A DNA stretch of 64,000 nt from Bacteroidota bacterium (GTDB lineage Bacteria > Bacteroidota > Bacteroidia > UKL13-3), in NCBI GenBank assembly GCA_027488905.1, contig JAIYAT010000031.1:36748-100747 (forward strand), given 5' to 3'. This document shows positions 7,155 through 61,507 of the stretch, one piece after another. Position numbers and translations under genes: made by a program. The notes beneath the pieces are model-generated. The model did not search any database. It was not told the DNA's origin and saw only the letters and a list, made by a program, of their open reading frames with translations. Numbering within the stretch: position 1 is the first letter of the stretch; the number at the start of each line of letters is the position of its first letter.

Positions 7155-8969
7155 CTATTTTCTAAGTAGCTTTAGTTCTACTTGATTTTTGTAAGATTTT
7201 GGTAGTTCCAAGGTCTTTTCAGTTTTTAGGTTTGACCCTAAACCTATTGCTATAATTCGATTTGTTTCTATTCCTTTTGAAATAAGATATGCTCTTAAGA
7301 CATTCGCTCTTTCTTGGCTGATGTCTTCTCCAATACCTCCAGTCTCACCAGCAGTTGGATTTGCATTTATTTGAATTACTGCATCACTTCTATCTTTTAA
7401 TAGTTTAATTACTTTTTCAAGATAGGCATAAGAACTACTATCTAATTTACTAGTTCCTTTTTCAAATTTTACTTTTTCTATGGTCTTCGTCAGAACTTTT
7501 TGCTCATCTTTTGATAATGAAAGTGAAGTTGAATCAATTTCTGAACAGCCACCTAAGTCTTTGAAACCAGCTTCATTTTTACATTTATCCTTTTTGTTAG
7601 GCACGCCATCATTATCATTATCATATAGATTACCAATGTTTAGGTTCAAACCAACTCTATTGCTTACAACATTAGCTGTAGAATAATTTAAATTGTTTAT
7701 AAATTGATCTGTGTTACCAAAAATTGTTAAAGGTCCTAAGTGGACGGCAATGCCTGCACTAACGGCCGGACTAAAATCTCTGTATTTAGTAACTCCAGCG
7801 CGTAGTTCAAGGAAATGTAATATTCTTTGAGAGAGGTTTACAGATAAACCAGTGTAAAATTTACCATTTACTTTTTCTCCAAATCCCACAAAACCTGCCG
7901 AGGTACTATTGGTTAATTGGTAATTAAAACCTAGATAGTATTTAGTATTTAATGCTCGGCGGTAGGAGGTTGATGATTCGTTTGGTTTTGCTAAATTATC
8001 TAGAGAATCAACCAAATCTTCTGTCAATTTAGAAATAGAGTCGAAATCAGGGTCGGTAAATCCTTCAAATTCAAACTCAAAATTCTTAGAATAGGTTTTT
8101 GCTTGTTTCCAATTGATTCCTCCAATATCTAAAATTGAGGCAGAAACACTCATTTTTTTATTTATTTTATAATCTGCCCCTATGTCAAAAGCAAAACCTC
8201 GTCCAACTGGGTCATTAAAGATTGGGTTTATGTAACTACTAGCAGTAGCGCCTTCAGGCATATTTTGGTAATAGTCTATTCTATCTATACCTGCTGCGCG
8301 AAATTCATAATCTAAATTGGCATTTAGTTTATAAACATTTAGATCACCCGAATCCGTTTTAAAATAGCCATTTGACCTATAAACCTGAGCATCAAAAAGC
8401 CCAATAAGATATTTCCCTCTAACACCCACAGTTAATTTTTCGTTAATTTCTCTGCTTAAACCTGCATGTATTGACGCATACGTGCTGGTATTTACTTTCA
8501 TATTATTAAAGCTGATTTCTTTTCCGAATAAGTTACTTGAATTTCCATAATACCCAAGCGCAGCAAATTCCTTTGGTACAGAAATATCTTGATTAGTATT
8601 TATTTGTAAGCCAAATGAAGTGTACATTTTGTTCATTCTAAAGCCAAAAAGAAGGAGATTAGCTTCTAAACCAATATTTATATCATTCAAATTGAATTGA
8701 TTTCCATCTAAAATCTTATTCATGGTTTGATTAAAAGTCTCATCATCTCTTAAGATGTCATACGCAGTGATTCCTGGCACCATTACCTGAATTTTAGCAT
8801 CCACGAGTCCTAAAGAGAACATTTGTTTTGAATGATGTGCTGGGTTCAACAATGTGGTTTGAACCAAGGATTTAGAGTTATAAAGTGTTAGATTGTTTTG
8901 CCCAAAAGTTAGAAAGCTTATGGCTAGAAAGGCAAATGTTAAATTTGATTTGATGATTATATTTTTCAT
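7155..8969 (-). CDS. DUF5723-type outer membrane beta-barrel with a TSP3-like acidic linker and an OmpA-like C-terminal domain
   Basis: Signal peptide; GFAFDIGADY and SASILDIGGINW strands; DNDNDGVPNKKDKC linker; OmpA-like C-terminus. Start placed at MKNIII. Confidence 0.75.
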   Translation of the reverse strand: MKNIIIKSNLTFAFLAISFLTFGQNNLTLYNSKSLVQTTLLNPAHHSKQMFSLGLVDAKIQVMVPGITAYDILRDDETFNQTMNKILDGNQFNLNDINIGLEANLLLFGFRMNKMYTSFGLQINTNQDISVPKEFAALGYYGNSSNLFGKEISFNNMKVNTSTYASIHAGLSREINEKLTVGVRGKYLIGLFDAQVYRSNGYFKTDSGDLNVYKLNANLDYEFRAAGIDRIDYYQNMPEGATASSYINPIFNDPVGRGFAFDIGADYKINKKMSVSASILDIGGINWKQAKTYSKNFEFEFEGFTDPDFDSISKLTEDLVDSLDNLAKPNESSTSYRRALNTKYYLGFNYQLTNSTSAGFVGFGEKVNGKFYTGLSVNLSQRILHFLELRAGVTKYRDFSPAVSAGIAVHLGPLTIFGNTDQFINNLNYSTANVVSNRVGLNLNIGNLYDNDNDGVPNKKDKCKNEAGFKDLGGCSEIDSTSLSLSKDEQKVLTKTIEKVKFEKGTSKLDSSSYAYLEKVIKLLKDRSDAVIQINANPTAGETGGIGEDISQERANVLRAYLISKGIETNRIIAIGLGSNLKTEKTLELPKSYKNQVELKLLRK

Positions 8970-8982
8970 TTCTGTCCCCTTT

Positions 8983-11058
8983 CTAATTATCACTTAATTT
9001 AGCCTTTACACTAAACCCTAGTTGCAGTTTATAATCTGAATAAATACCAACGGTTTTGTTTCCGCCATTAGTGGTTGTTAGAGCAGAAGCAATGATAATC
9101 TTCTTTGAAAGTTTTAGTTTTTCAAGTTGTGAAATGCTCAATGGGATAGAAGCCACGTAAACCCCACTTTTGTTTACCCTACCATTTGCATCTAAACTGC
9201 CAGAAACTAACACCTTAATATTTTCTAATTTAAGTACTTCGGTATTATTGCCATTTAAGAATTGAAGGTTTAAAATTGCATCAAAAGGAAATCCATTAGC
9301 TGACTTAATCATTAAAATCCCTTCTTCAAATGGGAATTCAGCATCTGTTAAGTCTGCTTCAACTGTATCACTTAATACAAAGTTGTCAGTCCTAATTTGC
9401 AAGGGTAAGTCCATTTCAAAGCCAATGGCAGTATAACCATCTGAACTAATGAAGTGATTACTTGAATTTGTATAGCCTTGTTCTCCGCGTGCAGTTAATT
9501 TAAAACTCAACATTTGTGGTGGTAAAGCAATGAAGTTGTCAATATTTGAAGAAGTCCTGTCAACTATTTTTGTACCTATAATCTGCTGACCTTGCTGAGA
9601 TAATGTAGGAAAAGATATTTCAAAAGGAGATAATCCTAAGGATGCTTTTTGGCCAAAGTCGTTTTCTCCACTAACTGCTAAATCAAGCTGAATTGGGATT
9701 CCAAGTGAATTTTTGGTGTGGAATTTAATAATGGGATTATCAAGTTTAAGCCCACTGGCAATATCCTTTAAAAATTCCAGTCCAATTTCAATAGAATCTC
9801 TTACTAAATCCTTAGCTCCAAAGAAACCTTCTGCATATTTTAATTCAGTTTCATCTGTATATAATTGTAACGTAAAAGTGTTTGCTGAGTCAAATGGAAG
9901 AATTGTATTACTACTAGTTAATTTGGCAGAATAGGTATAATAGATATTAGAATAGTTTTGATCCGGTTTAGTTGTTAAATCAAATTTGATATTCGAAATA
10001 TCAATTGATCCTTGATTAATACCAATTCCTGTGTAAGGAATAGTTATTGTTTTAGCGGGCACTGGATTTCCATTAATAGTAGAGCCAGGAAAATTCATGG
10101 TTACTTCAATTGGTTCTCTTACCGCACTTGTTGCTAAGTATTTGATTTTACCAGATTTGAATTCAATTTTACGAAGCCTTTGGGTGCTGTCTTCCCCTGA
10201 TATAAAAATATACGAACTTGTGCTCTTAAGCACTGCAGTTGGGAATTTAGACTGACCAGTAATTCCAAGAGCTGAACTCAATGAAAATTGAAAATTTATA
10301 CTTGAGCTTAAGTTTACAAATACTTGATTTGGACTGCTAGTTGCCAGGTTAATATTCTGAACCCCATAAGCCCAATTTGATGTAATGGTTTTATTTACAA
10401 ACGGAAATGAATCTATGACCGTGGCATTAGGGTTAATATTGGTAAGGTTGATGTTTCCTAGTAAAACATTAGCTGGATTTTGCGAATAGACATTTATTGT
10501 GATAGCGTTAACTCTAACGGGCAAGGTATTGGTGAAATTTACTTTTACGTATCCCGCTTGAATATTTATAGAATTAAAACCATTATGAGCTGGCAAAGAA
10601 ATAATAGAAGTATTTGCATCATTAATGTTTGGAAAAATTGCTGTTGTTCCAGCAATTGCATTAATTGCATTTCTGTTGGAGGTGTTAAATTCATCTTTTA
10701 GTTCACCTAAGGTCCTGTTGGCACTTGTAGTAGAAATAGGTATAGGTAATAGGCCTAATTTATTAATAACCTGACTAGGTGCTTGAATAGGTATATCTAA
10801 ATACTTGCCAATTCTAAATCCAAAAATAGAGTCTTCAAAATATTTAAACCTAATGAGCCCGTCTGGATCTACACTTGTATAAACAGTATCACTTTTTACC
10901 AAATTGTCAATACTCAAAGAAGTAAGGAATAATGGTAATCCAAATTCTGGATTAAATGTTACCTCATCAAACTTGTCAAAACTTAAATCTTTTTTACAAG
11001 CATTTAAAATTGAAAGAAGTGAAAATAAGATAATTAGTTTTTTGTAGTTTTTTTTCAT
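8983..11058 (-). CDS. large beta-rich lipoprotein of unknown function, upstream partner of the DUF5723 barrel
   Basis: Lipobox LNAC followed by KKD; 691-aa ORF. Confidence 0.75.
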   Translation of the reverse strand: MKKNYKKLIILFSLLSILNACKKDLSFDKFDEVTFNPEFGLPLFLTSLSIDNLVKSDTVYTSVDPDGLIRFKYFEDSIFGFRIGKYLDIPIQAPSQVINKLGLLPIPISTTSANRTLGELKDEFNTSNRNAINAIAGTTAIFPNINDANTSIISLPAHNGFNSINIQAGYVKVNFTNTLPVRVNAITINVYSQNPANVLLGNINLTNINPNATVIDSFPFVNKTITSNWAYGVQNINLATSSPNQVFVNLSSSINFQFSLSSALGITGQSKFPTAVLKSTSSYIFISGEDSTQRLRKIEFKSGKIKYLATSAVREPIEVTMNFPGSTINGNPVPAKTITIPYTGIGINQGSIDISNIKFDLTTKPDQNYSNIYYTYSAKLTSSNTILPFDSANTFTLQLYTDETELKYAEGFFGAKDLVRDSIEIGLEFLKDIASGLKLDNPIIKFHTKNSLGIPIQLDLAVSGENDFGQKASLGLSPFEISFPTLSQQGQQIIGTKIVDRTSSNIDNFIALPPQMLSFKLTARGEQGYTNSSNHFISSDGYTAIGFEMDLPLQIRTDNFVLSDTVEADLTDAEFPFEEGILMIKSANGFPFDAILNLQFLNGNNTEVLKLENIKVLVSGSLDANGRVNKSGVYVASIPLSISQLEKLKLSKKIIIASALTTTNGGNKTVGIYSDYKLQLGFSVKAKLSDN

Positions 11059-11084
11059 TATAATTCTTTTTCAATATTTAAAAT

Positions 11085-11118
11085 AAAAAAAAATGTTGAG
11101 GGGTTACCTCAACATTTT
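11085..11118 (-). terminator. intrinsic terminator after the 191-aa lipoprotein gene
   Basis: 12-bp stem AAAATGTTGAGG/CCTCAACATTTT with a T-tract on the minus strand. Confidence 0.75.
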
Positions 11119-11139
11119 CATTGAAAATTACAGCAGGGT

Positions 11140-11715: not shown

Positions 11716-11767
11716 AGTTTTTTTTGTTGATTCAATTATATGTAAAAAATATTAATTTCCAAATGAT

Positions 11768-12247: not shown

Positions 12248-12280
12248 TTAGACTTTTTTTGCCGCCATTTATTAAATATT

Positions 12281-13750: not shown

Positions 13751-13760
13751 TTTCTTGAGG

Positions 13761-13768: not shown

Positions 13769-13770
13769 GG

Positions 13771-15075
13771 TTATTCAAATAGTGACTCATATACCTTTTC
13801 CCAACCTAACCAACCTTCTTCTTTGTCAAAAGATGAGTTGTGCCAAATGGAAATAAATTTCCCTTGATATTTTTGCGTTACTTCAATCATTTCTTTAATG
13901 CATTGTTTAGCGGTTACTTGATCGTAATTCAAATAGTTTTTTAAGGTAACATCCATAATGCAAGGCGAGTAAAGTAATAAGTCAAATTTGGTATTATTAA
14001 TTAAATCATATGCCTCAAATGGCCTGCAAGTTGAAGCTCTAAAACCTATTTGGTCTGCATAGCATAAGGTATAATCTGCTTCAATTTCAAGCTTTACTAA
14101 GTTTTTGAAGCTTTCTGGTAACTTTAGTTTTAAAAAATGATACCTGCTAATTTTTGGTGCATTTCCTGTGATTTTTTCAAAAGTATCTACTTCTGATTTT
14201 AATAAATTAAAGTCAAAGGATGCCTTATATGAAGGATGTATGCCACATTTATGACTTTCAGATAATCTATTGTAAAGCTCAATTGCCTCTATACTTTCTG
14301 GGTTAATATTTTTATCATGCTTCCCATTATTGGCAAGCAAGAAAAAAAACTTAGTCTCGATATTTGATGTTCCTGCAAATCTTGTAAGGTAATTGTACGT
14401 GTCATATGGGTCATTTTCTATAGATTTAAATATGTTATTATTCGGTTTGAACCGAAGCAGTGAGCCTACATATTTTTTTGCAATTTCTAGTTTTGTTCTG
14501 CCTTTATATTTATACGCAAAATCTATATCAATGGTGTTTATTTTGGTAAAATGATGGGATTTAAAGGATAAGGCAGGATATACTGCTAATATTTTTTTCT
14601 TGAATTCTTCTACCCAATGGTCAATTAGCGGAATCTTTAAGAAGTTGTTTTTATAGGCAATTGAACTTGAGGCTTTAAATCTATTGTGTTCATCTCTTTG
14701 CTCGCTACTGTATTCTTCATATCTACTCAATAAATAAAAGCTAGCTGAAAGCAAATCAAATGTTAAGTATGAAGTTTCAATCTGAAAATCTGGAACTTCT
14801 TCATAAGCAAATTTAAAGAAAACCTTTAGCCAAATAGGGTCATCTACCACCTCAATTTTTTGTGGAATTATTTTGGTTTCAAAGAGCAAACTATTAGATG
14901 GAATATTTACAACTCCTTCTATGATGTAAGGCGAATAGTTTAGTCGGATAGATTTTGATTTAGTAAAATAATCTAAGTTATCTGTAATCTTATAATTTAT
15001 CCCTAATTGTTGAACCAATATTTGATCTAGGATGTATTTAATCCTGTCATTTTCTTCTGCCGCAAATACTAGCAT
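13771..15075 (-). CDS. polysaccharide deacetylase-like protein
   Basis: FYLLSRYEEY, TIDID, GIHPSY, RYHFL, IWHN motifs. Confidence 0.75.
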   Translation of the reverse strand: MLVFAAEENDRIKYILDQILVQQLGINYKITDNLDYFTKSKSIRLNYSPYIIEGVVNIPSNSLLFETKIIPQKIEVVDDPIWLKVFFKFAYEEVPDFQIETSYLTFDLLSASFYLLSRYEEYSSEQRDEHNRFKASSSIAYKNNFLKIPLIDHWVEEFKKKILAVYPALSFKSHHFTKINTIDIDFAYKYKGRTKLEIAKKYVGSLLRFKPNNNIFKSIENDPYDTYNYLTRFAGTSNIETKFFFLLANNGKHDKNINPESIEAIELYNRLSESHKCGIHPSYKASFDFNLLKSEVDTFEKITGNAPKISRYHFLKLKLPESFKNLVKLEIEADYTLCYADQIGFRASTCRPFEAYDLINNTKFDLLLYSPCIMDVTLKNYLNYDQVTAKQCIKEMIEVTQKYQGKFISIWHNSSFDKEEGWLGWEKVYESLFE

Positions 15076-16385: not shown

Positions 16386-16386
16386 T

Positions 16387-16947: not shown

Positions 16948-17021
16948 CGGATTGCAAGATAATACAAGCAGAAATATTTGTTTTTAATAAAATTGTTAGG
17001 GCAGTTTGGTTCAAACCGAAA

Positions 17022-28744: not shown

Positions 28745-29455
28745 ATGGCAAGTGACTTCTTCGATTTTAAGCAGTTTAGGGTTTACCATAACCAATGCGC
28801 CATGAAGGTTGGCACAGATAGCGTTTTGCTTGGTGCACTTATTCCGCAATCTGAAGATGTTTCAACTATTTTGGATATTGGCACTGGCTCTGGCATTCTC
28901 GCGCTAATGATGGCGCAACGTTTTCCCAAGGCTTCAATAGATGCCATAGAAATAGATTTAGCTGCTGCAACCCAAGCCCACCATAATTTTGAGCAAAGTA
29001 AGTGGTGCAATCGGTTGAAAGTATTTCCTAATGGATTGCAAGCGTTTTCTGCGACAAATAAGTATCAGTTAATCATAAGTAATCCACCCTATTTTGTATT
29101 GGAAGACGCTTATCAAATGGTAGATTCTTCAAGAAGAGACGCTCGCTATACCCATACTTTAACACATCATGAACTGCTAAGTAATAGCATGAATTTAATG
29201 GATGAAAAAGGTACCCTATTTGTAATTCTTCCTTCTAGTAATGCTGCTTCATTTTTTCAATTGGCGCAAGGTTTCGGTTTGAACCAAACTTTTGAAGTTG
29301 CAATTAAGATGAAGCCTAATGCGCTTGTTTCTCGGTACATTTTAGGATTTAGTTTAACACCCAAAATGATGGAGCAATCTGAGTTTGTTGTTTATGATAC
29401 GCTTGGCAAAAGAAGTGAAGCTTATGCCATGGTTACCTCAGATTTTTACCTCTGA
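28745..29455 (+). CDS. tRNA1(Val) A37 N6-methyltransferase (TrmN6/YfiC family)
   Basis: FDFKQF, MKVGTDSVLLG, LDIGTGSG, SNPPYF motifs. Confidence 0.9.
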   Translation: MASDFFDFKQFRVYHNQCAMKVGTDSVLLGALIPQSEDVSTILDIGTGSGILALMMAQRFPKASIDAIEIDLAAATQAHHNFEQSKWCNRLKVFPNGLQAFSATNKYQLIISNPPYFVLEDAYQMVDSSRRDARYTHTLTHHELLSNSMNLMDEKGTLFVILPSSNAASFFQLAQGFGLNQTFEVAIKMKPNALVSRYILGFSLTPKMMEQSEFVVYDTLGKRSEAYAMVTSDFYL

Positions 29456-35999: not shown

Positions 36000-36729
36000 G
36001 GTAGTGTACCTCTGTTAGGAAAAGCCCTTTTGCGGCCACACTTTGGCCAGCCTCACTTCTATCCTTACTTTCTAGAATGGCTTTAAAATCCAAAATGTTT
36101 TTCTTGTCGCTGCCTACTTCCAATAAAGTACCTACAATAGCCCTAACCATATTTCTCAAGAATCGGTCTGCTTTTATGGTAAATATCAATTGTTGGGTTT
36201 CGGTTTGAACCCATTTTGCTGCAATTACTTTGCAGTTAAAAGTTTTTACGTCGGTGTGAACTTTGCTAAAGCACTCAAAATCGTTGTGGGTGAGTAATAA
36301 ATTTGCGGCCTCATTCATTTTTTCCAAGTCAAGCGGTTTGGTGTAAAGTAGGCTAAAATCAACCAAAAACGGATTTGGCTTTGTGCAAATCACATACTCG
36401 TAGGCCCTTTCAATGGCATCAAATCTTGCATGAAAGCTTGGTTCAACCCGAATTATTTCAAAAATGCTAATGTCAAATGGAAGAATTGCATTCAACTGAA
36501 ATTTCAATTTTTCGGGGTCTAAATCATGTTCAGCATCAAAATGGGCAAAGTAGTTTTTTGCGTGAACACCGGTGTCAGTTCTTCCGCAGCCAACGATTTC
36601 GATTGACATTTTGGTCAAGATTTTTAATTTTTCTTGAAGTTCTCCTTGAATACTTTTTGCATTAGGTTGTATTTGCCAACCATGGTAATTTTTACCGTTA
36701 TAAGCTAAATGAATTGCGTAACGCATCAT
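35971..36729 (-). CDS. truA: tRNA pseudouridine(38-40) synthase
   Basis: GWQIQP, GRTDTGVHA, FHARFDA, FLRNMVR motifs. Confidence 0.97.
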   Translation of the reverse strand: MMRYAIHLAYNGKNYHGWQIQPNAKSIQGELQEKLKILTKMSIEIVGCGRTDTGVHAKNYFAHFDAEHDLDPEKLKFQLNAILPFDISIFEIIRVEPSFHARFDAIERAYEYVICTKPNPFLVDFSLLYTKPLDLEKMNEAANLLLTHNDFECFSKVHTDVKTFNCKVIAAKWVQTETQQLIFTIKADRFLRNMVRAIVGTLLEVGSDKKNILDFKAILESKDRSEAGQSVAAKGLFLTEVHYPIQPSPNIL

Positions 36730-41555: not shown

Positions 41556-42157
41556 AGTTAAAGTTAAGTCCAATTACAAACCTTTCTGACGCGCGTTTTG
41601 CAGCCGCCGCTGGTTTTCATTATATGGGTTTTTGTTTTGACCCAAGTGCTGTTGATTTTTTGTTGCCTATTAAAGCGAAGGAGATTTTAGAATGGACAAG
41701 CGGTTCGCATTGTGTAGGAGAATTTGGTGACCAATCGGCGGAGGAAATCCAAGAAATTAGTGAGCTATTGGGCGTTGATGTTATTTTATTAGACAATCAT
41801 ATTTTTCCAGATGAGTTTAGCCATTTCTCTAAGCCAATTATAAAAGTTATCGGTTTGAACCAAATGGATGAAGCGGCTGTCAAAAGAGAAATTGCGGCTT
41901 ATTCACCTTTTTGCGATGCCTTTCAACTCAATGCGCAAGGCATTTCTGTAGCCAACTTACTTTGGGTCAAACCGCTAACAGAAAGCCATAAAATAATAAT
42001 GAACGTTGGCAATGATGCAAGCGCTATCAATGAAATTGATTCATTAATTTCTCCGTTTGCCATGCATCTACAAGCTGCTACAGAAGAACAAACTGGCATG
42101 CGCGACTTTAGCGATTTAAACGCGCTTTTAGAAGCAATTGGTGCCACACAAGTTTAG
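41552..42157 (+). CDS. phosphoribosylanthranilate isomerase-like TIM barrel
   Basis: ITNLSDARFAA...MGF N-terminus of Bacteroidota stand-alone TrpF-like proteins. Confidence 0.65.
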   Translation: MKLKLSPITNLSDARFAAAAGFHYMGFCFDPSAVDFLLPIKAKEILEWTSGSHCVGEFGDQSAEEIQEISELLGVDVILLDNHIFPDEFSHFSKPIIKVIGLNQMDEAAVKREIAAYSPFCDAFQLNAQGISVANLLWVKPLTESHKIIMNVGNDASAINEIDSLISPFAMHLQAATEEQTGMRDFSDLNALLEAIGATQV

Positions 42158-44389: not shown

Positions 44390-45472
44390 ATGAAAAACAA
44401 GTATCGGGTAATTGGGTTAATGAGCGGTTCTTCCATGGATGGGGTAGATATTGCTTGTTGCGAATTTGAGTTTTCAGCTGACAAATGGCATTGGAAAATT
44501 ATAGAAGCCAATACCATTCCTTATTCCGAACAATGGCGGGTGCGATTAGCTTACCTAAACCAACAATCTGCAGAAAACTTTCATAAAACACATGTTTTTT
44601 ATGGGCATTATTTAGGCCTATTGGTTAAAGATTTTATAACTACACATCAATTATCGGCAGATTTTGTGGCCTCTCATGGACATACAATTTTTCATAGACC
44701 AGAACTTGGTTATACAGCTCAAATTGGTGATGGGGCAGCTATAAGTGCCATGTGTGGTTTGCCTGTTGTATCTGATTTTAGGAGCATGGATTTGGCGCTA
44801 AAAGGGCAAGGTGCGCCACTTGTCCCAGTTGGAGATGTACTTTTGTTTGGCGAATACGACGCCTGTCTTAATTTAGGTGGGATTTCTAATATCTCTTACC
44901 AAAAAGATGGTAAGCTCATTGCTTACGATATTTCACCTTGCAATATTGTTTTGAACCGAGTAGCGCGCTGGCTAGGAATGCCTTATGATGCAGAAGGACA
45001 ATTGGCCGCATCTGCAGAAGTTGATCCAGATTTGTTAGGCGAACTAAATGATTTGCCATATTATTCTTATCAAGGTGCCAAGTCATTGGGTAGAGAATGG
45101 ATTAATGAAGAATTTTGGCCAGTGGTAAAAATGTACACTGATATTTCAGAAGCAGAAAAGATGGCCACTTTAAATTTTCATATTGCAAAGCAAATAGCAA
45201 ATATTGTTAATAGATTAGGTTTGAACCGAGTGTTGGTTACAGGAGGTGGAGCCTTTAATAAAACCCTATTAACAAATCTTGGTTCAAATAGTAATGCTAT
45301 ATTTGACGTACCTCAAGCAGAATTGGTGAATTTTAAAGAAGCCTTAATTTTTGCTTTTTTAGGAGTACTTAGAATTAGAAATCAAGAAAATGTATTGAGT
45401 AGTGTAACTGGCGCTAAACATAATCATGTGGCTGGTGCACTTTACGGAAATTTTAACTCACTTATAAATTAA
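44390..45472 (+). CDS. anmK: anhydro-N-acetylmuramic acid kinase
   Basis: GLMSGSSMDG, SHGHT, GQGAPLVP, NLGGISN, KEA motifs. Confidence 0.95.
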   Translation: MKNKYRVIGLMSGSSMDGVDIACCEFEFSADKWHWKIIEANTIPYSEQWRVRLAYLNQQSAENFHKTHVFYGHYLGLLVKDFITTHQLSADFVASHGHTIFHRPELGYTAQIGDGAAISAMCGLPVVSDFRSMDLALKGQGAPLVPVGDVLLFGEYDACLNLGGISNISYQKDGKLIAYDISPCNIVLNRVARWLGMPYDAEGQLAASAEVDPDLLGELNDLPYYSYQGAKSLGREWINEEFWPVVKMYTDISEAEKMATLNFHIAKQIANIVNRLGLNRVLVTGGGAFNKTLLTNLGSNSNAIFDVPQAELVNFKEALIFAFLGVLRIRNQENVLSSVTGAKHNHVAGALYGNFNSLIN

Positions 45473-47838: not shown

Positions 47839-48660
47839 TTAAAAGTGTTTTACCCATTCACAAACAAGTTGGCTCAAAACGATTTCTGATTTAGCTGCTA
47901 CAGCAAGAATGTCTTCGAGTTTAGCAGGTTTTAGATTGTCTGGGTTACATTCATCTGTAAGCACCGAAATTGCGGCTACTTTCATACCCATGTGCACTGC
48001 GGCAATAACTTCTGGAACTGTACTCATGCCAATGGCATCAGCCCCAATTCTTTGTAAATATCTATATTCAGCGCGAGTTTCGAGCATAGGGCCGGTCATG
48101 GCAGCATAAACACCTTTTCTTAATTGTATTCCATTAGCCGATGCAATAGCCTCAAACGTTTGGTTCAAACCAAAATCATAAGGTGCGCTCATGTCTGGAA
48201 ATCTTGGTCCTAATTCCGAAATGTTTTTTCCAATTAATGGGTTTATGGGCAAAAGATTAATATGGTCATCTAGCAACATTAAATCCCCTTTGTTCCAAGA
48301 AAGATTGAGCAAACCTGCAGCGTTAGATAAGAAAATTACATTTATTCCAAGTAAGTGCATTACCCTAATAGGCAACACAATTTGTTCCATAGAATAGCCT
48401 TCATAAAAGTGGAATCGGCCTTGCATGGCCAATACTTTTTTACCCATTAGGTTGCCAAAAAGCAATTTGCCAGCATGAGATTCTACAGTTGAAACTGGAA
48501 AATGAGGAATATCTGCATAGGAAACACTTTTTTCAATATTTATTTTGGTTGCTAAATTCCCTAAACCTGTTCCTAGTACAATACCCAAAGTGGCGCCAGA
48601 TACCCCTTTAGAGACTAGGAAATCTGCTGCTATTTTTACTTTTTCTAAATCGCTAATCAT
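47839..48660 (-). CDS. punA: purine nucleoside phosphorylase
   Basis: VLGTGLG, GRFHFYEG, GMSTVPE motifs. Confidence 0.93.
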   Translation of the reverse strand: MISDLEKVKIAADFLVSKGVSGATLGIVLGTGLGNLATKINIEKSVSYADIPHFPVSTVESHAGKLLFGNLMGKKVLAMQGRFHFYEGYSMEQIVLPIRVMHLLGINVIFLSNAAGLLNLSWNKGDLMLLDDHINLLPINPLIGKNISELGPRFPDMSAPYDFGLNQTFEAIASANGIQLRKGVYAAMTGPMLETRAEYRYLQRIGADAIGMSTVPEVIAAVHMGMKVAAISVLTDECNPDNLKPAKLEDILAVAAKSEIVLSQLVCEWVKHF

Positions 48661-48761: not shown

Positions 48762-50657
48762 ATGAGTGATCCAATAAAACACGAGTGCGGTATTGCACTC
48801 ATACGCCTTTTGAAACCATTGAGCTACTATGAAGAAAAGTACGGCTCAGCGTTATATGGCTTAAAAAAATTATATCTATTAATGGAAAAACAGCACAACC
48901 GCGGCCAAGATGGCGCAGGGGTTGGCGCCATTAAGTTTGACCCAAGGCCTGGTGAAACATTTATTTTTAGGCAACGTGCTAATGGAAGCAATGCAATTGC
49001 CGAAATATTTGAAAAAATCTCTTCAAAAATTAGCAAATCTGGAACCAAAGAGCAAACCAAAAGTACAGCCTATTTAAAAAGCAATGCCCCTTTTATTGGA
49101 GAGCTATACCTAGGCCATTTAAGATACGGCACTCATGGTGGTAATAGCAAAGACCTTTGCCATCCGTTTATCAGAGAAAACAATTGGATGAGCAGAAATT
49201 TAATGCTTGCAGGGAATTTTAACCTAACCAATGTGGATGAACTTTTTGAGGTTCTTATTGATTTGGGTCAGCACCCCAGAGAAAGAGCTGATACTGTTAC
49301 CATGCTTGAAAAGATGGGACATTTTTTGGATGAAGAAGTGCAGCGTAATTTCACTAGGTTTAAACTAGAAGGACATTCTAATCAAGAAATTACTAGGTTG
49401 ATATCTGAAAATGTTAGTGTAGAGAACATCCTAAAAAGAAGTTTAAGAGATGCGGATGGTGGATATGTGATGGCAGGAATATTAGGGCATGGAGATGCTT
49501 TTGTGGTAAGAGATCCAAATGGTATTCGTCCAGTGTTTTATTACCAAGATGAGGAAATACTTGTTGTTACTAGCGAGAAGCCCGCTATCATGACAGGATT
49601 TAATATTCCATACAAAGCAGTAAAGGAAATTGGAATTGGAAATGCCTTAATCATTAAAAAAAGTGGCGAAATTGAAGAAGTAAATATTATGCCACCGGGA
49701 GAAAGAAAATCTTGTTCTTTCGAACGAATTTATTTCTCAAGAGGAAATGATAGAGAAATCTATAAGGAAAGAAAAATGCTTGGGCATCTATTGGCAACCA
49801 AAGTAATGGAAGCCGTTAAATATGATTTTGAGCATACCGTCTATTCTTATATTCCAAACACTGCGGCAGTTGCATTTTATGGCATGATGGATGGCATTCA
49901 TGAAGAGTTAAATAAATGGAAAGCCAATGAAATCAGTAAGCTCAAAGGTGACTTTTCTCCTGAGAATATTAAAAAAATCTTAGATGTGCTTCCAAGAAGA
50001 GAGCGAGTAGCCATTAAAGATGCGAAGCTTAGAACCTTTATTACAGATGATGCGCATCGAGAAGATATGGTTGCCCATGTGTATGACGTAACCTATGGTT
50101 TAATTCAGAATGAAAGAGATACCTTGGTAATCATTGATGATTCAATTGTGCGTGGTACTACTTTAAAGACAAGTATTTTGCGCATTTTAGACAGATTGCA
50201 TCCGAAAAAAATTATAATTGTTTCTTCCTCCCCTCAAATCAGATACCCTGATTGTTATGGTATTGACATGAGTCGCATGAAGGATTTTGTTGCCTTTCAG
50301 GCCATGGTTGCCTTATTAAAAGAAAACGGTATGGCAAGTCTACTGGATGAAGTTTACCAAAAGTGTAAAGCTCAAGAAAACCTTCCAAAAGAGGAAATGA
50401 TAAATTATGTGCAAGAGTTATATGCTCCTTTTTCTGACGATCAAATCAGTAAGAAAATAGCCGAGATAGTTACTCCTGAAGATATTTTTGCCGAGGTTGA
50501 GATAATTTATCAAAGCATCGAAAATCTGCACAAGGCTTGTCCAGAACATTCTGGTGATTGGTATTTTAGCGGAAACTATCCAACGCCAGGTGGCAACAAA
50601 GTGGTAACAAAGGCGTTCATTAACTACATGGAAGGAAATGCAGGAAGAGCATATTAA
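48762..50657 (+). CDS. purF: amidophosphoribosyltransferase (long Bacteroidota type)
   Basis: Propeptide followed by ECG; [31 protein letters not shown] motifs. Confidence 0.93.
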
Positions 50658-50667
50658 AAAAGAAGGT

Positions 50668-51390
50668 ATGATTTTAAGGAGTCATAACCTTGTAAAGCGT
50701 TATAAAAAGCGCACAGTTGTAAATAACGTGTCCATTGAGGTGCATCAGGGAGAATGCGTTGGATTGTTGGGCCCAAATGGTGCCGGAAAAACCACCACCT
50801 TTTACATGACAGTTGGCCTAATAAAGCCAGATGAGGGTGATGTTTACCTCAATGATGAGAAAATCACTAAGCTTCCAATGTATAGAAGGGCACAATTGGG
50901 ACTGGGTTATTTAGCACAAGAAGCATCCATTTTTAGAACCTTAACGGTTGAGGATAACCTAAAAGCTGTGCTAGAAATGACCAAGTTGAATAAGGTAGAA
51001 CAAGCAGAAAAATTAGAATCTTTGTTAGAAGAATTCGGTTTGAACCGAGTTAGAAAAAGCATAGGCAATGTGCTAAGTGGCGGAGAGAGAAGAAGAACTG
51101 AAATTGCACGAGCACTGGCGGTTAATCCAAAATTTATTTTGTTGGATGAACCATTTGCTGGTATTGACCCCATTGCAGTAGAAGACATTCAACATATTGT
51201 AGCTAAACTAAAGCACAAAAATATTGGCATCTTAATTACCGACCATAATGTTCACGAAACTTTAAGCATTGTAGACCGAGCCTATTTACTTTTTGAAGGT
51301 CAGATTCTAAAAAGTGGAACGGCCCAAGAACTTGCAGATGATGAAATGGTTAGAAAAGTTTACTTAGGCCAAAATTTTGTTTTAAGGTAA
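50668..51390 (+). CDS. lptB: LPS export ABC transporter ATP-binding protein
   Basis: [39 protein letters not shown] motifs. Confidence 0.96.
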
Positions 51391-54965: not shown

Positions 54966-55034
54966 CAGAAACCCCCACTCATTGTTTTTCAGTATTTTTT
55001 TATTAACCTTTGGTATACCCAATTTTTATAGCTT

Positions 55035-55673: not shown

Positions 55674-55912
55674 ACTTACAAACTATGGAACATTTCACCA
55701 AATTTTCATTGGACAAATGAAATGATTGCAATTAAATTGGATTTCTCCTCGGCTGCCTCACTGCGACAATTGGTTCAACCCAAGTTAAATTTATTATACT
55801 GATATGAATTTTTTTCCCTTTTGTTTTCAATTTCGATACTTTTGACAGCAACATCAATTGTAACATAGTTGTTTTATTGGGACAATAACATCCCGCAGGA
55901 TTGATTAAAAAA

Positions 55913-56590: not shown

Positions 56591-58181
56591 ACATACTTCA
56601 TACTTTTTGTTGAGTATGTCATCGGCTTTGCTATTAAGCTTAGCTTGGCAAAATTTTTATTTATTGCCTACTATTTTTTTCGGTTTGATCCCACTCTTCA
56701 TGCTGGAAAGAAAAATACGTATAGAACAACCCAATGCTAAACTTTGGGTTTTTGTGTATACTTGGCTAGCACTTCTAGTCTGGAACATTGGCAGCGTTTG
56801 GTGGATTTGGAATGCTAGTCCGGGTGGTGCAGTGGCAGCATTTTTCATCAACAGCTTACCCATGGTTTTGCCCTTTTTGCTATACCACAACCGAAATGTT
56901 AAAACGGGTACAGAAAATTTTTGGTACTTCATTGGCCTTTGGATTGCTGCCGAGTTCCTTCAGTTTCATTGGGATTTAGCCTTCCCTTGGTTAATTTTAG
57001 GTAACGTTTTTAGCTATGCACCCATTTTAGTGCAATGGTTCGAAATTACTGGCGTACTAGGTGGTAGCTTCTGGATTTTGATGCTCAATGTTAAGTTATG
57101 GCAATTTATTGAAGCCTGGCAAGAAAAGAGACTAATAGAGGAAAGAACCAAATGGATGAATGCTTTATTTATTTGGGTGTTATTGCCAATTTTTGCTTCA
57201 TGGTACTTAATGCCAACAGTAAACCCTAAAGGTCCAGAAGTTTCAGTGGTAGTGGTGCAACCAAACATCGATCCTTACACAGAGAAATTTGATGGACTTA
57301 GTCCAGAGGCGCAACTTAGAAAAATGTTGCTACTTGCAGAAAACACCATGGATTCGCAAACACAATACATCATTCTGCCAGAGACAGCTTTGCAAGGTGG
57401 TTTAGAAGAAAATAATTTGCTAAACGAAAGCTTGTTCCAAATTCTAAAAGGTTTTATAGCAGTTCACCCAGGTGTTAAAGTTTTAGGTGGAATGGATTCC
57501 TATAAAATTTATGAACCAAATGAACCTAAATCCATCACTGCGCGCAAATCAAGAAATAGCGAGGTTTGGTATGATTCCTACAATACAGCATTTTGTTATA
57601 ATGGCCTAGAAGGATTGCAAGTGTACCACAAAAGCAAGCTTGTCCCTGGTGTAGAAAAAATGCCTTACCCTCAAATTTTTGGCTTCATCGAAAGATATGC
57701 AATTTCACTCGGAGGCACTTCTGGTAGCTTGGGGCAAGACAAGGAAAGTAAAGTTTTTGGATTCTCAAATCAATTGCAATTAGCTCCCATTATTTGCTAC
57801 GAAAGTGTTTTTCCTTCCTACACTTCTTCCTATGTTCAAAAAGGTGCAGATGTTTTGTGCGTTATCACCAATGATGGTTGGTGGGGCAATACACCTGGTT
57901 TTAGACAGCATTTCGATTTTAGTAGGTTACGCGCCATTGAAAACCGTCGTTGGGTAATTCGTTGCGCCAACACAGGTATCAGTGGTATTATAAACTTCAA
58001 AGGAAGAGTAGTTACAGAAACCGAATGGTGGAAAGAAGCAGCGTTCAAAGCAAAGGTTCCTTTGGTTCAAACCGAAACCTATTATGCTAAACATGGAGAT
58101 TGGATTGCTTGGGTTTTAATGGTCATTGGGTTTCTTTCTACTCGGTTCAAACCAATTGTTTTTACCCGCTTTGGTGCTTAG
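56535..58181 (+). CDS. lnt: apolipoprotein N-acyltransferase (start uncertain)
   Basis: TM domain, FPW..LG, VQPN, PET, YHK..LVP..E, ICYES, TNDGWW, RAIENRR motifs. Confidence 0.92.
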   Translation: MKPTQLKENLYLLSKVKHKHTSYFLLSMSSALLLSLAWQNFYLLPTIFFGLIPLFMLERKIRIEQPNAKLWVFVYTWLALLVWNIGSVWWIWNASPGGAVAAFFINSLPMVLPFLLYHNRNVKTGTENFWYFIGLWIAAEFLQFHWDLAFPWLILGNVFSYAPILVQWFEITGVLGGSFWILMLNVKLWQFIEAWQEKRLIEERTKWMNALFIWVLLPIFASWYLMPTVNPKGPEVSVVVVQPNIDPYTEKFDGLSPEAQLRKMLLLAENTMDSQTQYIILPETALQGGLEENNLLNESLFQILKGFIAVHPGVKVLGGMDSYKIYEPNEPKSITARKSRNSEVWYDSYNTAFCYNGLEGLQVYHKSKLVPGVEKMPYPQIFGFIERYAISLGGTSGSLGQDKESKVFGFSNQLQLAPIICYESVFPSYTSSYVQKGADVLCVITNDGWWGNTPGFRQHFDFSRLRAIENRRWVIRCANTGISGIINFKGRVVTETEWWKEAAFKAKVPLVQTETYYAKHGDWIAWVLMVIGFLSTRFKPIVFTRFGA

Positions 58182-61100
58182 TGTTTCGAAGCTGCAATGG
58201 CAAAACTACACCTGTAAATATCCCTATGACCATCTTTGTCCTGCATTTCTAAAACTGCAAAATATATTCCCGCTTCACTTAATTGCCCAAACCTATTGAG
58301 GCCAGTCCAGCGTAAACTAGCATGATTTTGCCCTATCAAATTTGGCTCCGATTCATATACCAATTGCCCTTTATAGTTAAGGATATTTAACCTGGCCCAA
58401 GCGGTTTCTTTTATGTTTTTTAAATTGAACGTTACAAAATCATTATAGCCATCTAGGTTCGGACTAAAAACTTGCGGTGTGGCTGTAAAGGCCTCTTTTA
58501 ACAAGGGATTTGCCTTTTCAAAATACAAACCTGGCGTGGCCATTTGTGCCGAGCTAAACCAATTGGAATTGCCTTTATCCAATGGAAACAAGTGCAATCG
58601 CTCTAAGCTTATTCCTTCAGTTTGAACCAAAAGTTCAAAATGTAAATCCTTAGAAAAATTTAGGCTATCTATACAAAAATTGTTACTGTCTCTAAGTTCA
58701 ATAATTCCACCTTCATCTGTTAACGACAACATAGAATGTTGTAGAATAGCAGGCAGAAAATTAGCACTGTAGTTTTTCGAAAGTTCTATTGGATTTTCGT
58801 GAAGCGCTATAGTTTTACCAGGCGCCAAGCAATTTCCTGGACCATTTAGCGATATAACTTCTTTCCATTCTGCCTCATCTTTTGATTTTCTAATTAGGAT
58901 AAGGTTGTCTAAACTAATGGGTTTAACATTGGTATTGTGCAGTTCTACAAAATCAGTTTGATTGGGGTAACTGTCAAACAAAACTTCAGTAAATACAATA
59001 TCGCCAGGTTGCGCCAAAACACTGGGCTCAATGCTAATTTGTTCGGGTGCCATTTTGTTTCCGGCACAATCTTGTGCGGCCCAAATTTGTAAATCTTGCG
59101 GCAAATTCAAATTGCGTGCATCTACTGATAGCCTTTGTAAATTATTTTGAAAATAGCTTGGTGAAACAAGGTTTGAACTGTTCTTCCACCTTATGTCGAT
59201 TTGAGCCGAATCTATGTCTTCGCTAAAAGTAAGTAACACCAAACTATCCTTTAGACAACTCATTTTGAGGTGAGGCGCAGTTAAATCTTCAACTTTTTTG
59301 AGCACACTATTTTTCCTCCCTGGTGTACTCCCCAATTTGGAGAGGCTTGCTTGCCAAATTTCTTCCTTTAAACATGGATTGTTAGTTGGGCTTAGTTCCA
59401 AACTTGCAGCCAGCGGATTTAGATAAAGCTGATTATTTAACCAATCACTTTTATATGCCACCTGATGAATAATCTTTCCCTTGCTATTTTTTAAGGTTAG
59501 CGTTTCATTAAAGGTTAAGCTTGGGAAATTGTTTAAACCCATAGCATTTCCATATTGACTAAATGCCTTGGCAAAATCTGTTTTGCAAAGAATGATAAAA
59601 GAGTCTGGATAAAGCAGAATGGGTGCCAAGGGTATATCTAACCTATTTGTAGAAATTGACAAGTTTTCCAGATTAATCGCATAGTTGCTTTTATTGTGAA
59701 GCTCAATAAAATCTGTCGGAGGAAAGTAAGTAGGTTTAGATTCGTCGAAACATATTTCATTGATAAGTACCTCTAAAAACTTTGGCTCACGCTGCTCATA
59801 AAACACAAGGTTGGTATCAACAATTGATTCATTTAAACTACAATCTTTTATGCCGCTACAAATTAACTTGTAAGATTTTTTATGCTGCAAACTATCCTTT
59901 GAAGTTAATAATAAATAACTTGTTCCTTGCGTATCAACAAGGCATTCGATGTTATTGAGCGTGCAGGTGATGGGCTCCATTTCATTTGAATATATGGCTT
60001 CATTGAATTTCAAATACAATTGGTTCAAACCAGAAAAGGAAACAGAAAGTAAGGTGGGAGAAATTATATCTGGCCCAAGCTGCCAAGCAGAATTCTGTGT
60101 TCCTGGGGTTCCACCTGAGGGGTTTAAACTGGCTTGCCAATTAAGCTCCTTTTGACATAATCTGCTGGGGTGAATCATTTCTAAGGAATAGCCACCTTGC
60201 GATTTTTGTGGGTCTTGGTAGCTGTTCAAATTATAGGTATAACTATGAATCGTGTCAAGCTTTTGGTTCAATAAAAAAAGTGCTTTGCCTTCATTTCCTA
60301 AAACTGGTAAACTCATGGCAATTTTTTGAGCATATGCGCTAAACAAAGCACTGTCTTTTGTATTAAATAATATGAGAAACTCCTGAGGAAACAACACCTT
60401 CTGAGTTAAAGGAAAGGGGTATGTTTTGGATTCATCTGCTAAGCTTAAGTTCTTTAATGGAATGGGCACATCGCTATTATTGTAAATTTCTATAAACTCT
60501 GCGTCAGGCAAACCTACACTAGGAGTGGGGTCTGGAAGTAATTCTGTAATCAATACTTCATGAAGTTTTGGTTCAACATAAATCAAGCTGATGGACGTAT
60601 CTTTTTGGCAGTTTTGTTTTTTATCGCAAATGTTTTTTAGGGTTAAAGTATTGGGTTGTTTTGAACCAAGTTTTTCTTGAAAGTATAAAGTTATTTTTTC
60701 GGTTTGAACCAAAAAGTTTGAGATAGGCTTTTGATTAAGTAAGAATGCTGCTTTACTCATTTCAAGGGGTTCAGTAAAGTATAATTCTAAGCTACTATCA
60801 GAAAGCAAATTGCTAGAAACCAGCGCAGGTGCAGAAGTATCCACACGTTCTGGTCCAAAATAGAAATCATCAAAATATAAGTTTGCTGCGTTACCAATCG
60901 TATACCTAAACCAAATGCCTTGAAAGGCAGAATTAAATGGAAGCTCGAAAGTGGCCTTCCCTTCTAGCATTTCTGATTGCTTGTTAATGCTGGTATTACT
61001 AAACAATTGCCAATGTTTTTGCTGGTAAAGTTTAACTTTAATTTGAACCAAGTTGTTTGTCGCACCAAGTGTTGCTGGTCGGCCACGAATGATTGGCATG

Positions 61101-61507
61101 GAAATTCCGTTATTCAAAACATACAGGCTAATTGAATCAGTAGTGCCAGTGCTGCCGCCAAACTGAATATAAACAGCATTTCTGCTTTGGTTCAAACCAA
61201 TACTATCTGCAAATAGATAATACCTAGCTTGGTTTTGACTGCTTGGGTTAAAGGCAATCCTAAGCCAAAAATCCCATTCGAGGCTATCCTGAGCAACAAA
61301 AGGTAGTGCAAGGAATGCAGGAGTTAAAGAAGATTTTCCTGCTGATTGCAATTGCAAATTGGTATTGATTCTAAATAAGGAGTCGGTTCCCAACCAGTTG
61401 GGAGCATTTGTAAAATCGCCATCTGAGAAGGTTTCGATGGTTTGCGCTTGAACAAAAATTGTCCAAAACATGAAAAGAATTGTAAATAGGTTTTTAGGCA
61501 TATTCAA
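58178..61507 (-). CDS. secreted multi-lamin-tail-domain protein with Ig-like spacers and a T9SS-like C-terminal domain
   Basis: Three [IF][TN]E...D...F[IV]E[IL].N...TPG modules; C-terminal FSPNLDGYND...W.G...GIY. Confidence 0.8.
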   Translation of the reverse strand: MNMPKNLFTILFMFWTIFVQAQTIETFSDGDFTNAPNWLGTDSLFRINTNLQLQSAGKSSLTPAFLALPFVAQDSLEWDFWLRIAFNPSSQNQARYYLFADSIGLNQSRNAVYIQFGGSTGTTDSISLYVLNNGISMPIIRGRPATLGATNNLVQIKVKLYQQKHWQLFSNTSINKQSEMLEGKATFELPFNSAFQGIWFRYTIGNAANLYFDDFYFGPERVDTSAPALVSSNLLSDSSLELYFTEPLEMSKAAFLLNQKPISNFLVQTEKITLYFQEKLGSKQPNTLTLKNICDKKQNCQKDTSISLIYVEPKLHEVLITELLPDPTPSVGLPDAEFIEIYNNSDVPIPLKNLSLADESKTYPFPLTQKVLFPQEFLILFNTKDSALFSAYAQKIAMSLPVLGNEGKALFLLNQKLDTIHSYTYNLNSYQDPQKSQGGYSLEMIHPSRLCQKELNWQASLNPSGGTPGTQNSAWQLGPDIISPTLLSVSFSGLNQLYLKFNEAIYSNEMEPITCTLNNIECLVDTQGTSYLLLTSKDSLQHKKSYKLICSGIKDCSLNESIVDTNLVFYEQREPKFLEVLINEICFDESKPTYFPPTDFIELHNKSNYAINLENLSISTNRLDIPLAPILLYPDSFIILCKTDFAKAFSQYGNAMGLNNFPSLTFNETLTLKNSKGKIIHQVAYKSDWLNNQLYLNPLAASLELSPTNNPCLKEEIWQASLSKLGSTPGRKNSVLKKVEDLTAPHLKMSCLKDSLVLLTFSEDIDSAQIDIRWKNSSNLVSPSYFQNNLQRLSVDARNLNLPQDLQIWAAQDCAGNKMAPEQISIEPSVLAQPGDIVFTEVLFDSYPNQTDFVELHNTNVKPISLDNLILIRKSKDEAEWKEVISLNGPGNCLAPGKTIALHENPIELSKNYSANFLPAILQHSMLSLTDEGGIIELRDSNNFCIDSLNFSKDLHFELLVQTEGISLERLHLFPLDKGNSNWFSSAQMATPGLYFEKANPLLKEAFTATPQVFSPNLDGYNDFVTFNLKNIKETAWARLNILNYKGQLVYESEPNLIGQNHASLRWTGLNRFGQLSEAGIYFAVLEMQDKDGHRDIYRCSFAIAASKH

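Follow-up and report, generated by a model that had tools for sequence, protein, structure and literature searches.

A stretch of 64,000 nucleotides from a Bacteroidota genome (the window; G000:C25:36748-100747, G000 being the genome to which it belongs) contains a short word, GGTTTGAACC, that is hyper-abundant throughout this genome, is evenly spread, is kept at the same places in related genomes and occurs as clade-specific dialects in one genus and its sister genus. We infer, with about as much confidence as doubt, that it serves as a self-DNA uptake or transformation tag, comparable to the DNA uptake sequences (DUS) of Neisseriaceae and the uptake signal sequences (USS) of Pasteurellaceae, and recognised by a non-pilus receptor.

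The initial annotation of the window had listed 15 copies of the word, eight in one orientation and seven in the other, and exact matches to GGTTTGAACC or its reverse complement were recovered at all of these positions (8 on the plus strand and 7 on the minus strand). Its rough expectation of about 0.1 copies, an excess of around two orders of magnitude, is close to the mean of 0.14 (maximum 2) obtained in 100 dinucleotide-preserving shuffles of the window, and understated the case, the excess being genome-wide. Fourteen copies lie within open reading frames (ORFs), the one at 17008 being the sole intergenic copy, and they are read as GLN (8), VQT (4) and FKP (2), the three readings already proposed. 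The flank TY...RA accompanies 10 of the 15 copies, as counted before, and all 15 have an A at +11, two bases past the 10-mer. Most of the gene names given earlier (TruA, AnmK, PNP, Lnt, MTS methyltransferase, DUF5723, PRAI-like and lamin-tail) were recovered; the "deacetylase" shows only DUF7033 (Pfam). The copies are as follows.

7643..7652, minus strand: TT GGTTTGAACC TA, in the DUF5723/OmpA gene (Pfam), reads GLN.
8856..8865, plus strand: GT GGTTTGAACC AA, antisense in the DUF5723/OmpA gene (Pfam), reads VQT.
14444..14453, plus strand: TC GGTTTGAACC GA, antisense in the DUF7033 gene (Pfam), reads FKP.
17008..17017, minus strand: TC GGTTTGAACC AA, intergenic.
29276..29285, plus strand: TC GGTTTGAACC AA, in the MTS methyltransferase gene (Pfam), reads GLNQ.
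36202..36211, plus strand: TC GGTTTGAACC CA, antisense in truA (Pfam), reads VQT.
41852..41861, plus strand: TC GGTTTGAACC AA, in the PRAI-like gene (Pfam), reads GLNQ.
45218..45227, plus strand: TA GGTTTGAACC GA, in anmK (Pfam), reads GLNR.
48162..48171, minus strand: TT GGTTTGAACC AA, in the purine nucleoside phosphorylase gene (Pfam: PNP family), reads GLNQ.
51037..51046, plus strand: TC GGTTTGAACC GA, in the ORF 50638-51390, reads GLNR.
58064..58073, minus strand: TC GGTTTGAACC AA, antisense in lnt (Pfam), reads VQT.
58144..58153, minus strand: TT GGTTTGAACC GA, antisense in lnt (Pfam), reads FKP.
60022..60031, minus strand: CT GGTTTGAACC AA, in the gene of a lamin-tail protein with a type IX secretion system (T9SS) signal, reads GLNQ; a one-off version stands at the same place in the related genome G013.
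60701..60710, plus strand: TC GGTTTGAACC AA, antisense in the lamin-tail/T9SS gene, reads VQT; a copy stands at the same place in G013 and in a second related genome, G006.
61189..61198, minus strand: TT GGTTTGAACC AA, in the lamin-tail/T9SS gene, reads GLNQ; a one-off version occurs in G013.

The G000 assembly, a draft like all the genomes used here, has 3,551,629 bases in 40 contigs, with 35.7% G+C and an estimated completeness of 99.9%. The word is its commonest 10-mer, with 840 copies (435/405 by strand) at a density of about 0.24/kb on nearly all contigs longer than 10 kb, so that it is by no means absent from the rest of the genome; TGAACCAA (1,778 copies) is the commonest 8-mer and GGTTTGAACCAA (528 copies) the commonest 12-mer. 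Markov models of order 0-5 predict between 4.4 and 65 copies of the 10-mer and between 0.03 and 0.7 copies of the 14-mer TCGGTTTGAACCAA, of which 257 were found. When synonymous codons were shuffled inside 2,852 crude ORFs one by one (longest-ORF calls with exact stops and over-extended starts), a procedure that preserves both protein sequence and codon usage, 49 +/- 4 copies resulted vs 697 observed in ORFs; this result, together with the use of every open frame, bears out the view that the signal is in the DNA rather than in the peptide. The enrichment thus survives the codon null and the low-order Markov nulls against which it had been proposed to be checked, and only the maximal-order Markov model (built from 9-mers and 8-mers) comes near the observed number (783 expected vs 840), being uninformative for so long a word because the sub-words that it takes as input are pieces of the motif itself.

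The unit itself is longer than was first noted. Across the 840 copies, position -2 is T in 72%, position -1 is C in 57% and T in 27%, +10 is A in 64% and +11 is A in 97%, with T-richness extending upstream from -12 to -2. A scan of single substitutions in TCGGTTTGAACCAA (0-based positions) found only 0-3 copies for changes at T6, G7, A8, C10, C11 and A13 and 0-12 copies for changes at both Gs, whereas positions 1 and 12 are free. In the alignment with G006, per-site divergence falls to 0.03-0.15 from -2 to +11, with the free position -1 as an exception, against about 0.24 outside, and nothing is conserved past these 14 bp in this footprint; the footprint against G013 is similar (about -4 to +12). 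Since flanks, substitution scan and phylogenetic footprint agree on 14 bp, the actual unit is a 14-mer, T-(C/T)-GGTTTGAACC-N-A, that is asymmetric and no true palindrome: its halves, TCGGTTT and TTGGTTC (the complement of GAACCAA), are alike but not equal, and the perfect palindrome GGTTCGAACC has only 34 sites in G000. The features of repetitive extragenic palindromes (REP) and miniature inverted-repeat transposable elements (MITE), which are extragenic and belong to a longer structured unit, were not found, as 83% of the copies lie in ORFs and nothing is conserved past the 14 bp.

Of the 840 copies in G000, ORFs contain 697, and the other 143 (17%) lie between genes or are partial, about 92% of the genome being ORF by the crude calls. 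Copies occur in either gene orientation and in five of the six reading phases, the remaining phase being one in which the word would create a TGA stop. Copy density is highest in convergent 3'-3' spacers (0.97/kb), followed by tandem (0.41) and divergent spacers (0.38) and by coding sequence (about 0.21), and in tandem spacers the median copy lies 19 nucleotides past the upstream stop. Spacing is near-Poisson (variance/mean 1.3 in 311 bins of 10 kb). When the 10-mer or its 9-mer core is counted there are 1,690 sites, with a largest gap of 29 kb and 10 of the 311 bins empty. Dense windows of 2 kb or 5 kb are no more frequent than expected in G000, pairs closer than 100 bp number 27 vs 20 expected, and this count of close pairs gave no sign of inverted-pair terminators. 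A Rayleigh scan of five contigs detected no periodicity (p(max) 0.054-0.53), with its power limited by the draft state of the assembly. Orientation tracks GC skew weakly, with hand-summed counts of 141:105 on a mostly negative-skew contig and 67:90 on a mostly positive one, about 57:43, in agreement with the earlier argument that the lack of strand bias speaks against a polar role of the kind known for Chi or for the FtsK-orienting polar sequences (KOPS).

The longest stretches of G000 that lack the word are islands of defence or mobile type, among them the following.

G000:C33:3650-32386: motif-free island with four ORFs of 480-540 amino acids without a Pfam family and a 1,905-amino-acid subtilase-caspase-DUF7379 protein.
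G000:C37:176310-225374: motif-free island with a Toprim protein, a Schlafen/AlbA_2-HATPase-Fic-like protein and a type I HsdM.
G000:C27:339-355 kb: motif desert with C5 methylases.

The first two of these islands resemble defence or conflict islands.

The sites are conserved well beyond their surroundings. In 359 kb aligned with G013 (6.3% divergence), 73 of 89 sites are common at the same place, with 57% of phase-matched flanking 10-mers identical (p=4e-6). At the larger distance of G006 (343 kb aligned, 21.6% divergence), 63 of 102 sites are common at the same place, the corresponding control being 9.8% (p=2e-29); 21 of the 39 unshared sites are one base off. Even across dialects, in a small sample, 3 of 8 alignable GGTTCGAACC sites of the genome G016 match a G000 motif, two of them as GGTTTGAACC. 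Within the lamin-tail gene of the window, motifs are gained and lost through single changes, in both directions. Conservation above the controls therefore shows that the copies are actively maintained and are no fossils. Between G000 and G013, the identity of 694 windows of 500 bp is unimodal, and no recent recombination tract can be defined.

The word is limited to one genus and its sister genus. Whole-genome counts, which exclude G060, G072 and G105-G108, showed GGTTTGAACC to be enriched in all 18 other genus genomes (64-1,323 copies vs 5-35 for a reversed control word; related genomes are not statistically independent); the 12 genomes sampled from other families of the class showed no such enrichment. 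Among 80 genomes of the family (17 genera), the 12-mer is clearly enriched in 8/8 genus genomes (21-988 vs 0-6) and in G038, of the genus g21 (39 vs 1), and nowhere else in the family, a marginal case being G093 of the genus g23 (14 vs 5). The half-site TTGAACCAA reaches 4-16 times its control in 9/9 genus genomes, 9 times in G038 and 1.5-3.8 times in eight g23 genomes, and is elsewhere mostly at about 1-2 times, with small-count exceptions near 4-fold in G046 (41/10) and G052 (69/17). In one dialect or another, the motif is present in 25/25 independently assembled genomes of the genus. At least 120 stretches of viral contigs carry the 14-mer; among 80 viral loci examined, the 10-mer occurs once in 75, twice in 4 and three times in 1, and none of the 80 is a motif-rich phage.

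The dialects named in the clade structure are GGTTTGAACC (TG), GGTCTGAACC, GGTTCGAACC (CG) and one in which only the half-site is found; several statements about them come from k-mer samples of 68-200 kb. In such samples, the perfect palindrome GGTTCGAACC, which contains TTCGAA, is the top 10-mer of G016 (18 sites in 109 kb), G003 carries TTGGTTCAGACCGAA alongside the two other forms, G038 has TTTGAACCAAA, with the left half missing, and G012 has a weak CTGAACCAA, while four other genera yielded no comparable word. Whole-genome numbers of TG/CG/CTG sites are as follows.

G000: 840 / 34 / 38.
G017: 1,323 / 92 / 96.
G016: 64 / 311 / 7.
G014: 71 / 272 / 3.
G018: 114 / 203 / 505.
G002: 264 / 97 / 417.
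G003: 237 / 209 / 283.

A tree of one 631-amino-acid protein from the 25 genus genomes and 3 outgroup loci places the CG genomes in one clade (100/100), the CTG-dominant pair in another (100/99) and the TG-dominant genomes in two, with G012, G072 and G105 forming a clade with low 10-mer counts; the perfect palindrome is dominant only in the clade of G016, G014 and G108. The element constant across dialects is GAACCAA, a single half-site. The quasi-palindrome had been proposed as a possible target of a dimeric binder, an idea that is only half right, since a true palindrome is confined to one clade and the element common to all is the single half-site. Because the sister genus carries the TG-type half-site, the CpG palindrome is probably derived and the TG form looks ancestral, so the CG form would have arisen against the CpG depletion of the genome (observed/expected 0.60 in G000). 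The converse idea, that TG forms are CG palindromes decayed by CpG deamination, was rejected: the asymmetry of the flanks matches that of the centre, total density is higher in TG than in CG genomes, and the TG-type half-site is found in the sister genus while the CG clade is derived and well supported.

Other repeated words were noticed in passing. G045, from another genus of the family (L328-L332), has a family of overlapping 12-mers, TTCCATTATAGG among them, with 12-15 occurrences in 100 kb, which resemble a longer repeat unit, perhaps an array of clustered regularly interspaced short palindromic repeats (CRISPR) or a dispersed repeat, and G012 (L097-L106) has a short tandem-like word, ATTCATAATTCA, in about 20 copies, and a 12- to 16-letter word around TGGCTGAAGCCAACGG with an inverted repeat (10-13 copies in 200 kb).

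The mechanism proposed here starts from a reader that would recognise double-stranded DNA sequence, neither peptide nor RNA, and would keep some 840-1,700 copies in place; we infer this reader to be an uptake or transformation receptor. A DNA receptor for natural transformation would prefer fragments that bear the word, and word-bearing alleles would then be taken up and recombined more often, so that the word would accumulate where it is tolerated and be restored when lost. The preferred word would drift with its receptor, giving rise to clade-specific dialects. The outer-membrane step would be a non-pilus one, because no type IV pilus was found. Of the three options offered by the initial annotation, the self-DNA uptake tag fits best, in view of the near-Poisson spread over the whole genome, the use of both strands and all open frames, the restriction to the genus with its dialects, the conserved sites, the preference for 3' ends and the absence from islands, nucleoid occlusion being unsupported and a palindrome driven by methylation or repair weakened, and we lean to the uptake-sequence model because of the asymmetry of the word and because no matching methylase was found.

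Of the core competence genes, G000 has those for ComEC, DprA and a ComEA-like protein anchored in the membrane. ComEC (G000:C27:149386-151455; L189:9386-11455) has 689 amino acids with only DUF4131 and Competence domains by Pfam; a metallo-beta-lactamase domain is not reported in it by Pfam, and its neighbourhood in G000 holds nothing suggestive. The ComEA-like protein (G000:C27:69922-70665) has 248 amino acids, with a transmembrane segment and two HHH_3 domains, and its sequence changes quickly (57% identity to G006). Genera g1, g21 and g23 have a short form of about 219-259 amino acids and other genera one of about 300, the difference being a low-complexity linker after the membrane anchor with no extra domain. 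The three genera with the short form are also the three with any half-site enrichment, and the matches in G006 and G017 have one in-frame TAA near the N-terminus. As a receptor, the ComEA-like protein is a lead only. A receptor of the ComP pilin type is excluded, since G000 has no type IV pilus ATPase or secretin, and a Riemerella-type surface receptor, in which a DUF5689/choice-of-anchor J protein adjoins a CarboxypepD_reg barrel, was not found in searches with domain families. The VirB4-type family of type IV secretion systems (T4SS) had no match, and likewise none in a Bacteroides control.

Two secreted proteins of the same contig drew attention. The lamin-tail protein of the window (58178-61507, minus strand) has 1,109 amino acids, three lamin-tail domains and a CHU_C/T9SS sorting tail, and could be described as a secreted, possibly DNA-binding surface protein, with no tie to the motif found. 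It evolves very fast within the genus, with identities of 89% to G013, 55% to G006 and 35-37% to G016 and G017, a housekeeping protein used for comparison having 80-94% across those genomes. As a candidate receptor it was discarded as unsupported, because genomes with a common dialect have versions of it that are only 35-55% identical. The other (G000:C25:976-6585; L190) is a 1,869-amino-acid T9SS-secreted protein with choice-of-anchor I, 5'-nucleotidase C-terminal and SusE domains, which adjoins recJ and may be an extracellular enzyme that processes nucleotides or nucleic acids.

Several observations weigh against an uptake tag. The ComEA-like gene is found in 78 of 81 family genomes, with or without the motif, and ComEC, ComEA and DprA do not discriminate between readings because they are near-universal. 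In G000, neither a T2SSE/PilB-type ATPase (PF00437) nor a secretin (PF00263) was matched, and DUF5689 (PF18942), a domain of Riemerella surface proteins, has no match over the cut-off, the best being 25.2 bits against 28.6 in a nucleotidase-like T9SS protein. Two matches to choice-of-anchor J (NF038128) are a peptidase and a BNR-type protein. Among the families searched, no outer-membrane route for DNA was identified in G000, and no gene emerged whose distribution follows that of the motif. Conservation of sites is expected just as much if each is selected for an intracellular role, and a perfect palindrome, as in one clade, is more usual for a methylase or for a dimeric binder inside the cell. 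Finally, the group apparently has no cultured member, and its competence and uptake bias are putative. It is because of the palindromic clade and the lack of an identified outer-membrane route that the following rival explanations are kept alive.

The most serious of them, unlikely in our estimate, is that an abundant, sequence-specific DNA-binding protein inside the cell, one that structures the nucleoid or organises the chromosome, binds the word, each site being under selection. Such a protein would account for sites conserved 6-fold above phase-matched flanks at 22% divergence, and the contrast between a half-site and an inverted repeat (perfect in the G016 clade) resembles binding by a monomer and by a dimer. 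Nevertheless, selection on about 1,000 single sites would be very weak per site, and the copy number is tens of times that of the sites of Noc, SlmA, MatP and RacA. A role in nucleoid occlusion or of the ter type, raised by the initial annotation, finds no support in 840-1,690 sites without large excluded or enriched regions, clusters or periodicity (best p=0.054 on the five contigs). In addition, 83% of the sites lie in coding sequence, in all open frames, and the preference for 3' spacers over promoters leaves no regulatory logic. For the highly iterated palindrome HIP1 of cyanobacteria, a nucleoid role has been argued from a like conservation (Xu et al. 2018, in the part of the text accessible).

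Rather improbable, in our judgement, is a HIP1-like word linked to methylation, which an orphan methyltransferase would recognise and whose high frequency would be sustained by biased repair or by methylation-dependent recombination or transformation. HIP1 is the closest known hyper-abundant word in coding sequence and is linked to two methylases in the accessible parts of the literature, and TTCGAA lies within the CG dialect GGTTCGAACC, itself a perfect palindrome, but the motif is asymmetric in G000 and TTCGAA is there neither enriched nor avoided (ratio 0.98). Of the 25 genus genomes, only 7 have C5 methylases over the cut-off; G006, G016 and G017 lack them, the last being the richest genome (1,323 copies) and 100% complete, and those of G000 lie in a motif desert. 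The N4/N6 family PF01555 and the Dam-like PF02086 gave no match in G000, other methylase families not having been searched. A TG form that looks ancestral and a CpG form that is probably derived, against a CpG-depleting bias, also fit this explanation poorly, and taken together these results weaken the methylation- or repair-driven palindrome that had been put forward earlier. A drive by 5-methylcytosine (m5C) and very short patch (VSP) repair was likewise tried and set aside, as it showed no correlation with motif or dialect. As a separate observation, GATC is strongly avoided in G000 (observed/Markov 0.37), and so is GGATCC (0.42), though no Dam-like family was found.

A Chi-like signal, by which a nuclease of recombination or repair would recognise self DNA while double-strand breaks are repaired, appears very improbable. 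The word's density of one per 2-4 kb is akin to that of Chi in E. coli, its core TGAACCAA is asymmetric and the islands lack it; nevertheless, its orientation is biased by only about 57:43 with respect to GC skew, the perfect palindrome of one clade cannot be polar, and 14 bp is about twice the length of known Chi sites. Hardly credible is the view that the word has no function and stems from biased codons or peptides, from a decayed mobile repeat or from assembly, in favour of which the maximal-order Markov expectation and the recurrence of the peptides GLN(Q) and (L)VQT might be cited, given that this Markov null is built from sub-words of the motif while lower orders give 4-65 copies, that the synonymous shuffle yields 49 vs 697, that five of six phases are used and the word would create a TGA stop in the sixth, that 83% of the copies are in unrelated ORFs, and that the word is present in all 25 independently assembled genus genomes with its orthologous sites conserved. 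Whatever belief these readings and the uptake tag do not take up is left to explanations outside the five.

Hyper-abundant words elsewhere have each exposed a basic process, be it the recognition of self when DNA is taken up or the role of HIP1, which is still debated. The present case has the advantages of a sharp footprint, strong conservation of sites and a dialect series within one genus, from half-site to asymmetric 14-mer to perfect palindrome, which makes the question of what reads such words directly approachable through DNA pull-downs and comparative genomics. There is also a hint that uncultured freshwater Bacteroidota exchange genes without pili and in a sequence-selective way. If the uptake reading is true, self-preferring natural transformation would shape the genomes of abundant environmental Bacteroidota, and the dialects would offer a direct handle for finding the receptor through covariation. 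In practice, the word can be used as a marker to assign contigs to the genus and to spot recently acquired DNA in its genomes. A bolder proposal, which we hold tentatively and at somewhat less than even chances, is that this would be the first DNA uptake sequence system outside Proteobacteria, with a 14-bp word, a pilus-independent receptor and at least four co-evolved dialects, in the course of which a single half-site would have given way to a perfect palindrome. The initial annotation knew of no such motif in Bacteroidota, and our literature searches agree, having found no uptake sequence or iterated palindrome described for the phylum; the matches listed in a search by the motif letters are primers or unrelated sequences. 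Within this literature, and within the accessible part of a k-mer survey of Riemerella and Flavobacterium, a DUS/USS-like tag is not yet described for Bacteroidota.

Among known systems, Chi and KOPS are polar and shorter, and the sites of Noc, SlmA and MatP number in the tens and follow regional patterns. All of these are over-represented chromosomal words read by proteins, and in that they are like the present one, which differs in having neither the strong polarity of the former nor the regional pattern of the latter.

Within the same phylum, Riemerella is naturally transformable without pili and needs ComEC, DprA, ComF, RecA and four Bacteroidota-specific proteins, in a pathway that includes a periplasmic helix-hairpin-helix (HhH) protein, and R. 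columbina prefers its own DNA, according to the accessible text of these reports (PMC8459023, PMC7965970). As far as that text goes, the k-mer survey of Riemerella and Flavobacterium gave only A-rich words and no DUS (PMC7965970). G000 is like Riemerella in having ComEC, DprA and a ComEA-like HhH protein, and unlike it in possessing such a word and in its lack of a DUF5689 match over the cut-off.

For HIP1 (GCGATCGC), the accessible parts of the sources describe sites conserved beyond neutrality and reported to be periodic, with a suggested nucleoid role (PMC5861425), an abundance that correlates with T4SS genes and a proposal that it is a possible signal for uptake or horizontal gene transfer (PMC13756078), and a link to two methylases and, recently, to transformation (PMC4390886, 10.1101/2024.09.10.611283, PMC13756078), which HIP1 raises in a methylation-dependent manner (2024 preprint). 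The word described here shares with HIP1 its hyper-abundance in coding sequence, the conservation of its sites and its restriction to a lineage. HIP1, however, is a perfect 8-bp palindrome with two orphan methylases and a reported periodicity of 10-90 kb, whereas here the unit has 14 bp and is asymmetric in most clades, with no periodicity and no matching conserved methylase found.

The USS of Pasteurellaceae exist as Hin- and Apl-type subtypes in related lineages. The present word is like them in its core with a weaker AT-rich flank (T-rich from -12 to -2), its even spread, its location mostly in coding sequence in several frames, its subtypes in related lineages and its visible peptide imprint (49 copies under the codon shuffle, clearly more than under the nucleotide nulls), and differs from them in its sequence and lineage and in that no pilus genes were found. 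DUS, for their part, are asymmetric words with about a thousand copies on both strands and dialects that follow phylogeny, common downstream of genes and poor in foreign islands. The word in G000 differs from DUS and their ComP receptor in sequence and phylum, in having most of its copies inside genes and in that neither a type IV pilus ATPase or secretin nor inverted-pair terminators were found, but it is equally an asymmetric word of high information, in about 10^3 copies on both strands, with phylogeny-tracking dialects that differ by 1-2 bases, common just past genes and poor in foreign islands. To our knowledge, hyper-abundant conserved words within genes come from very few lineages, the Neisseriaceae, the Pasteurellaceae and the cyanobacteria, and the known systems that combine a word of high information, about 10^3 copies, a place mostly in genes, an even and non-polar spread, conservation, lineage restriction, dialects and absence from islands, as is the case here, are the uptake sequences and HIP1.

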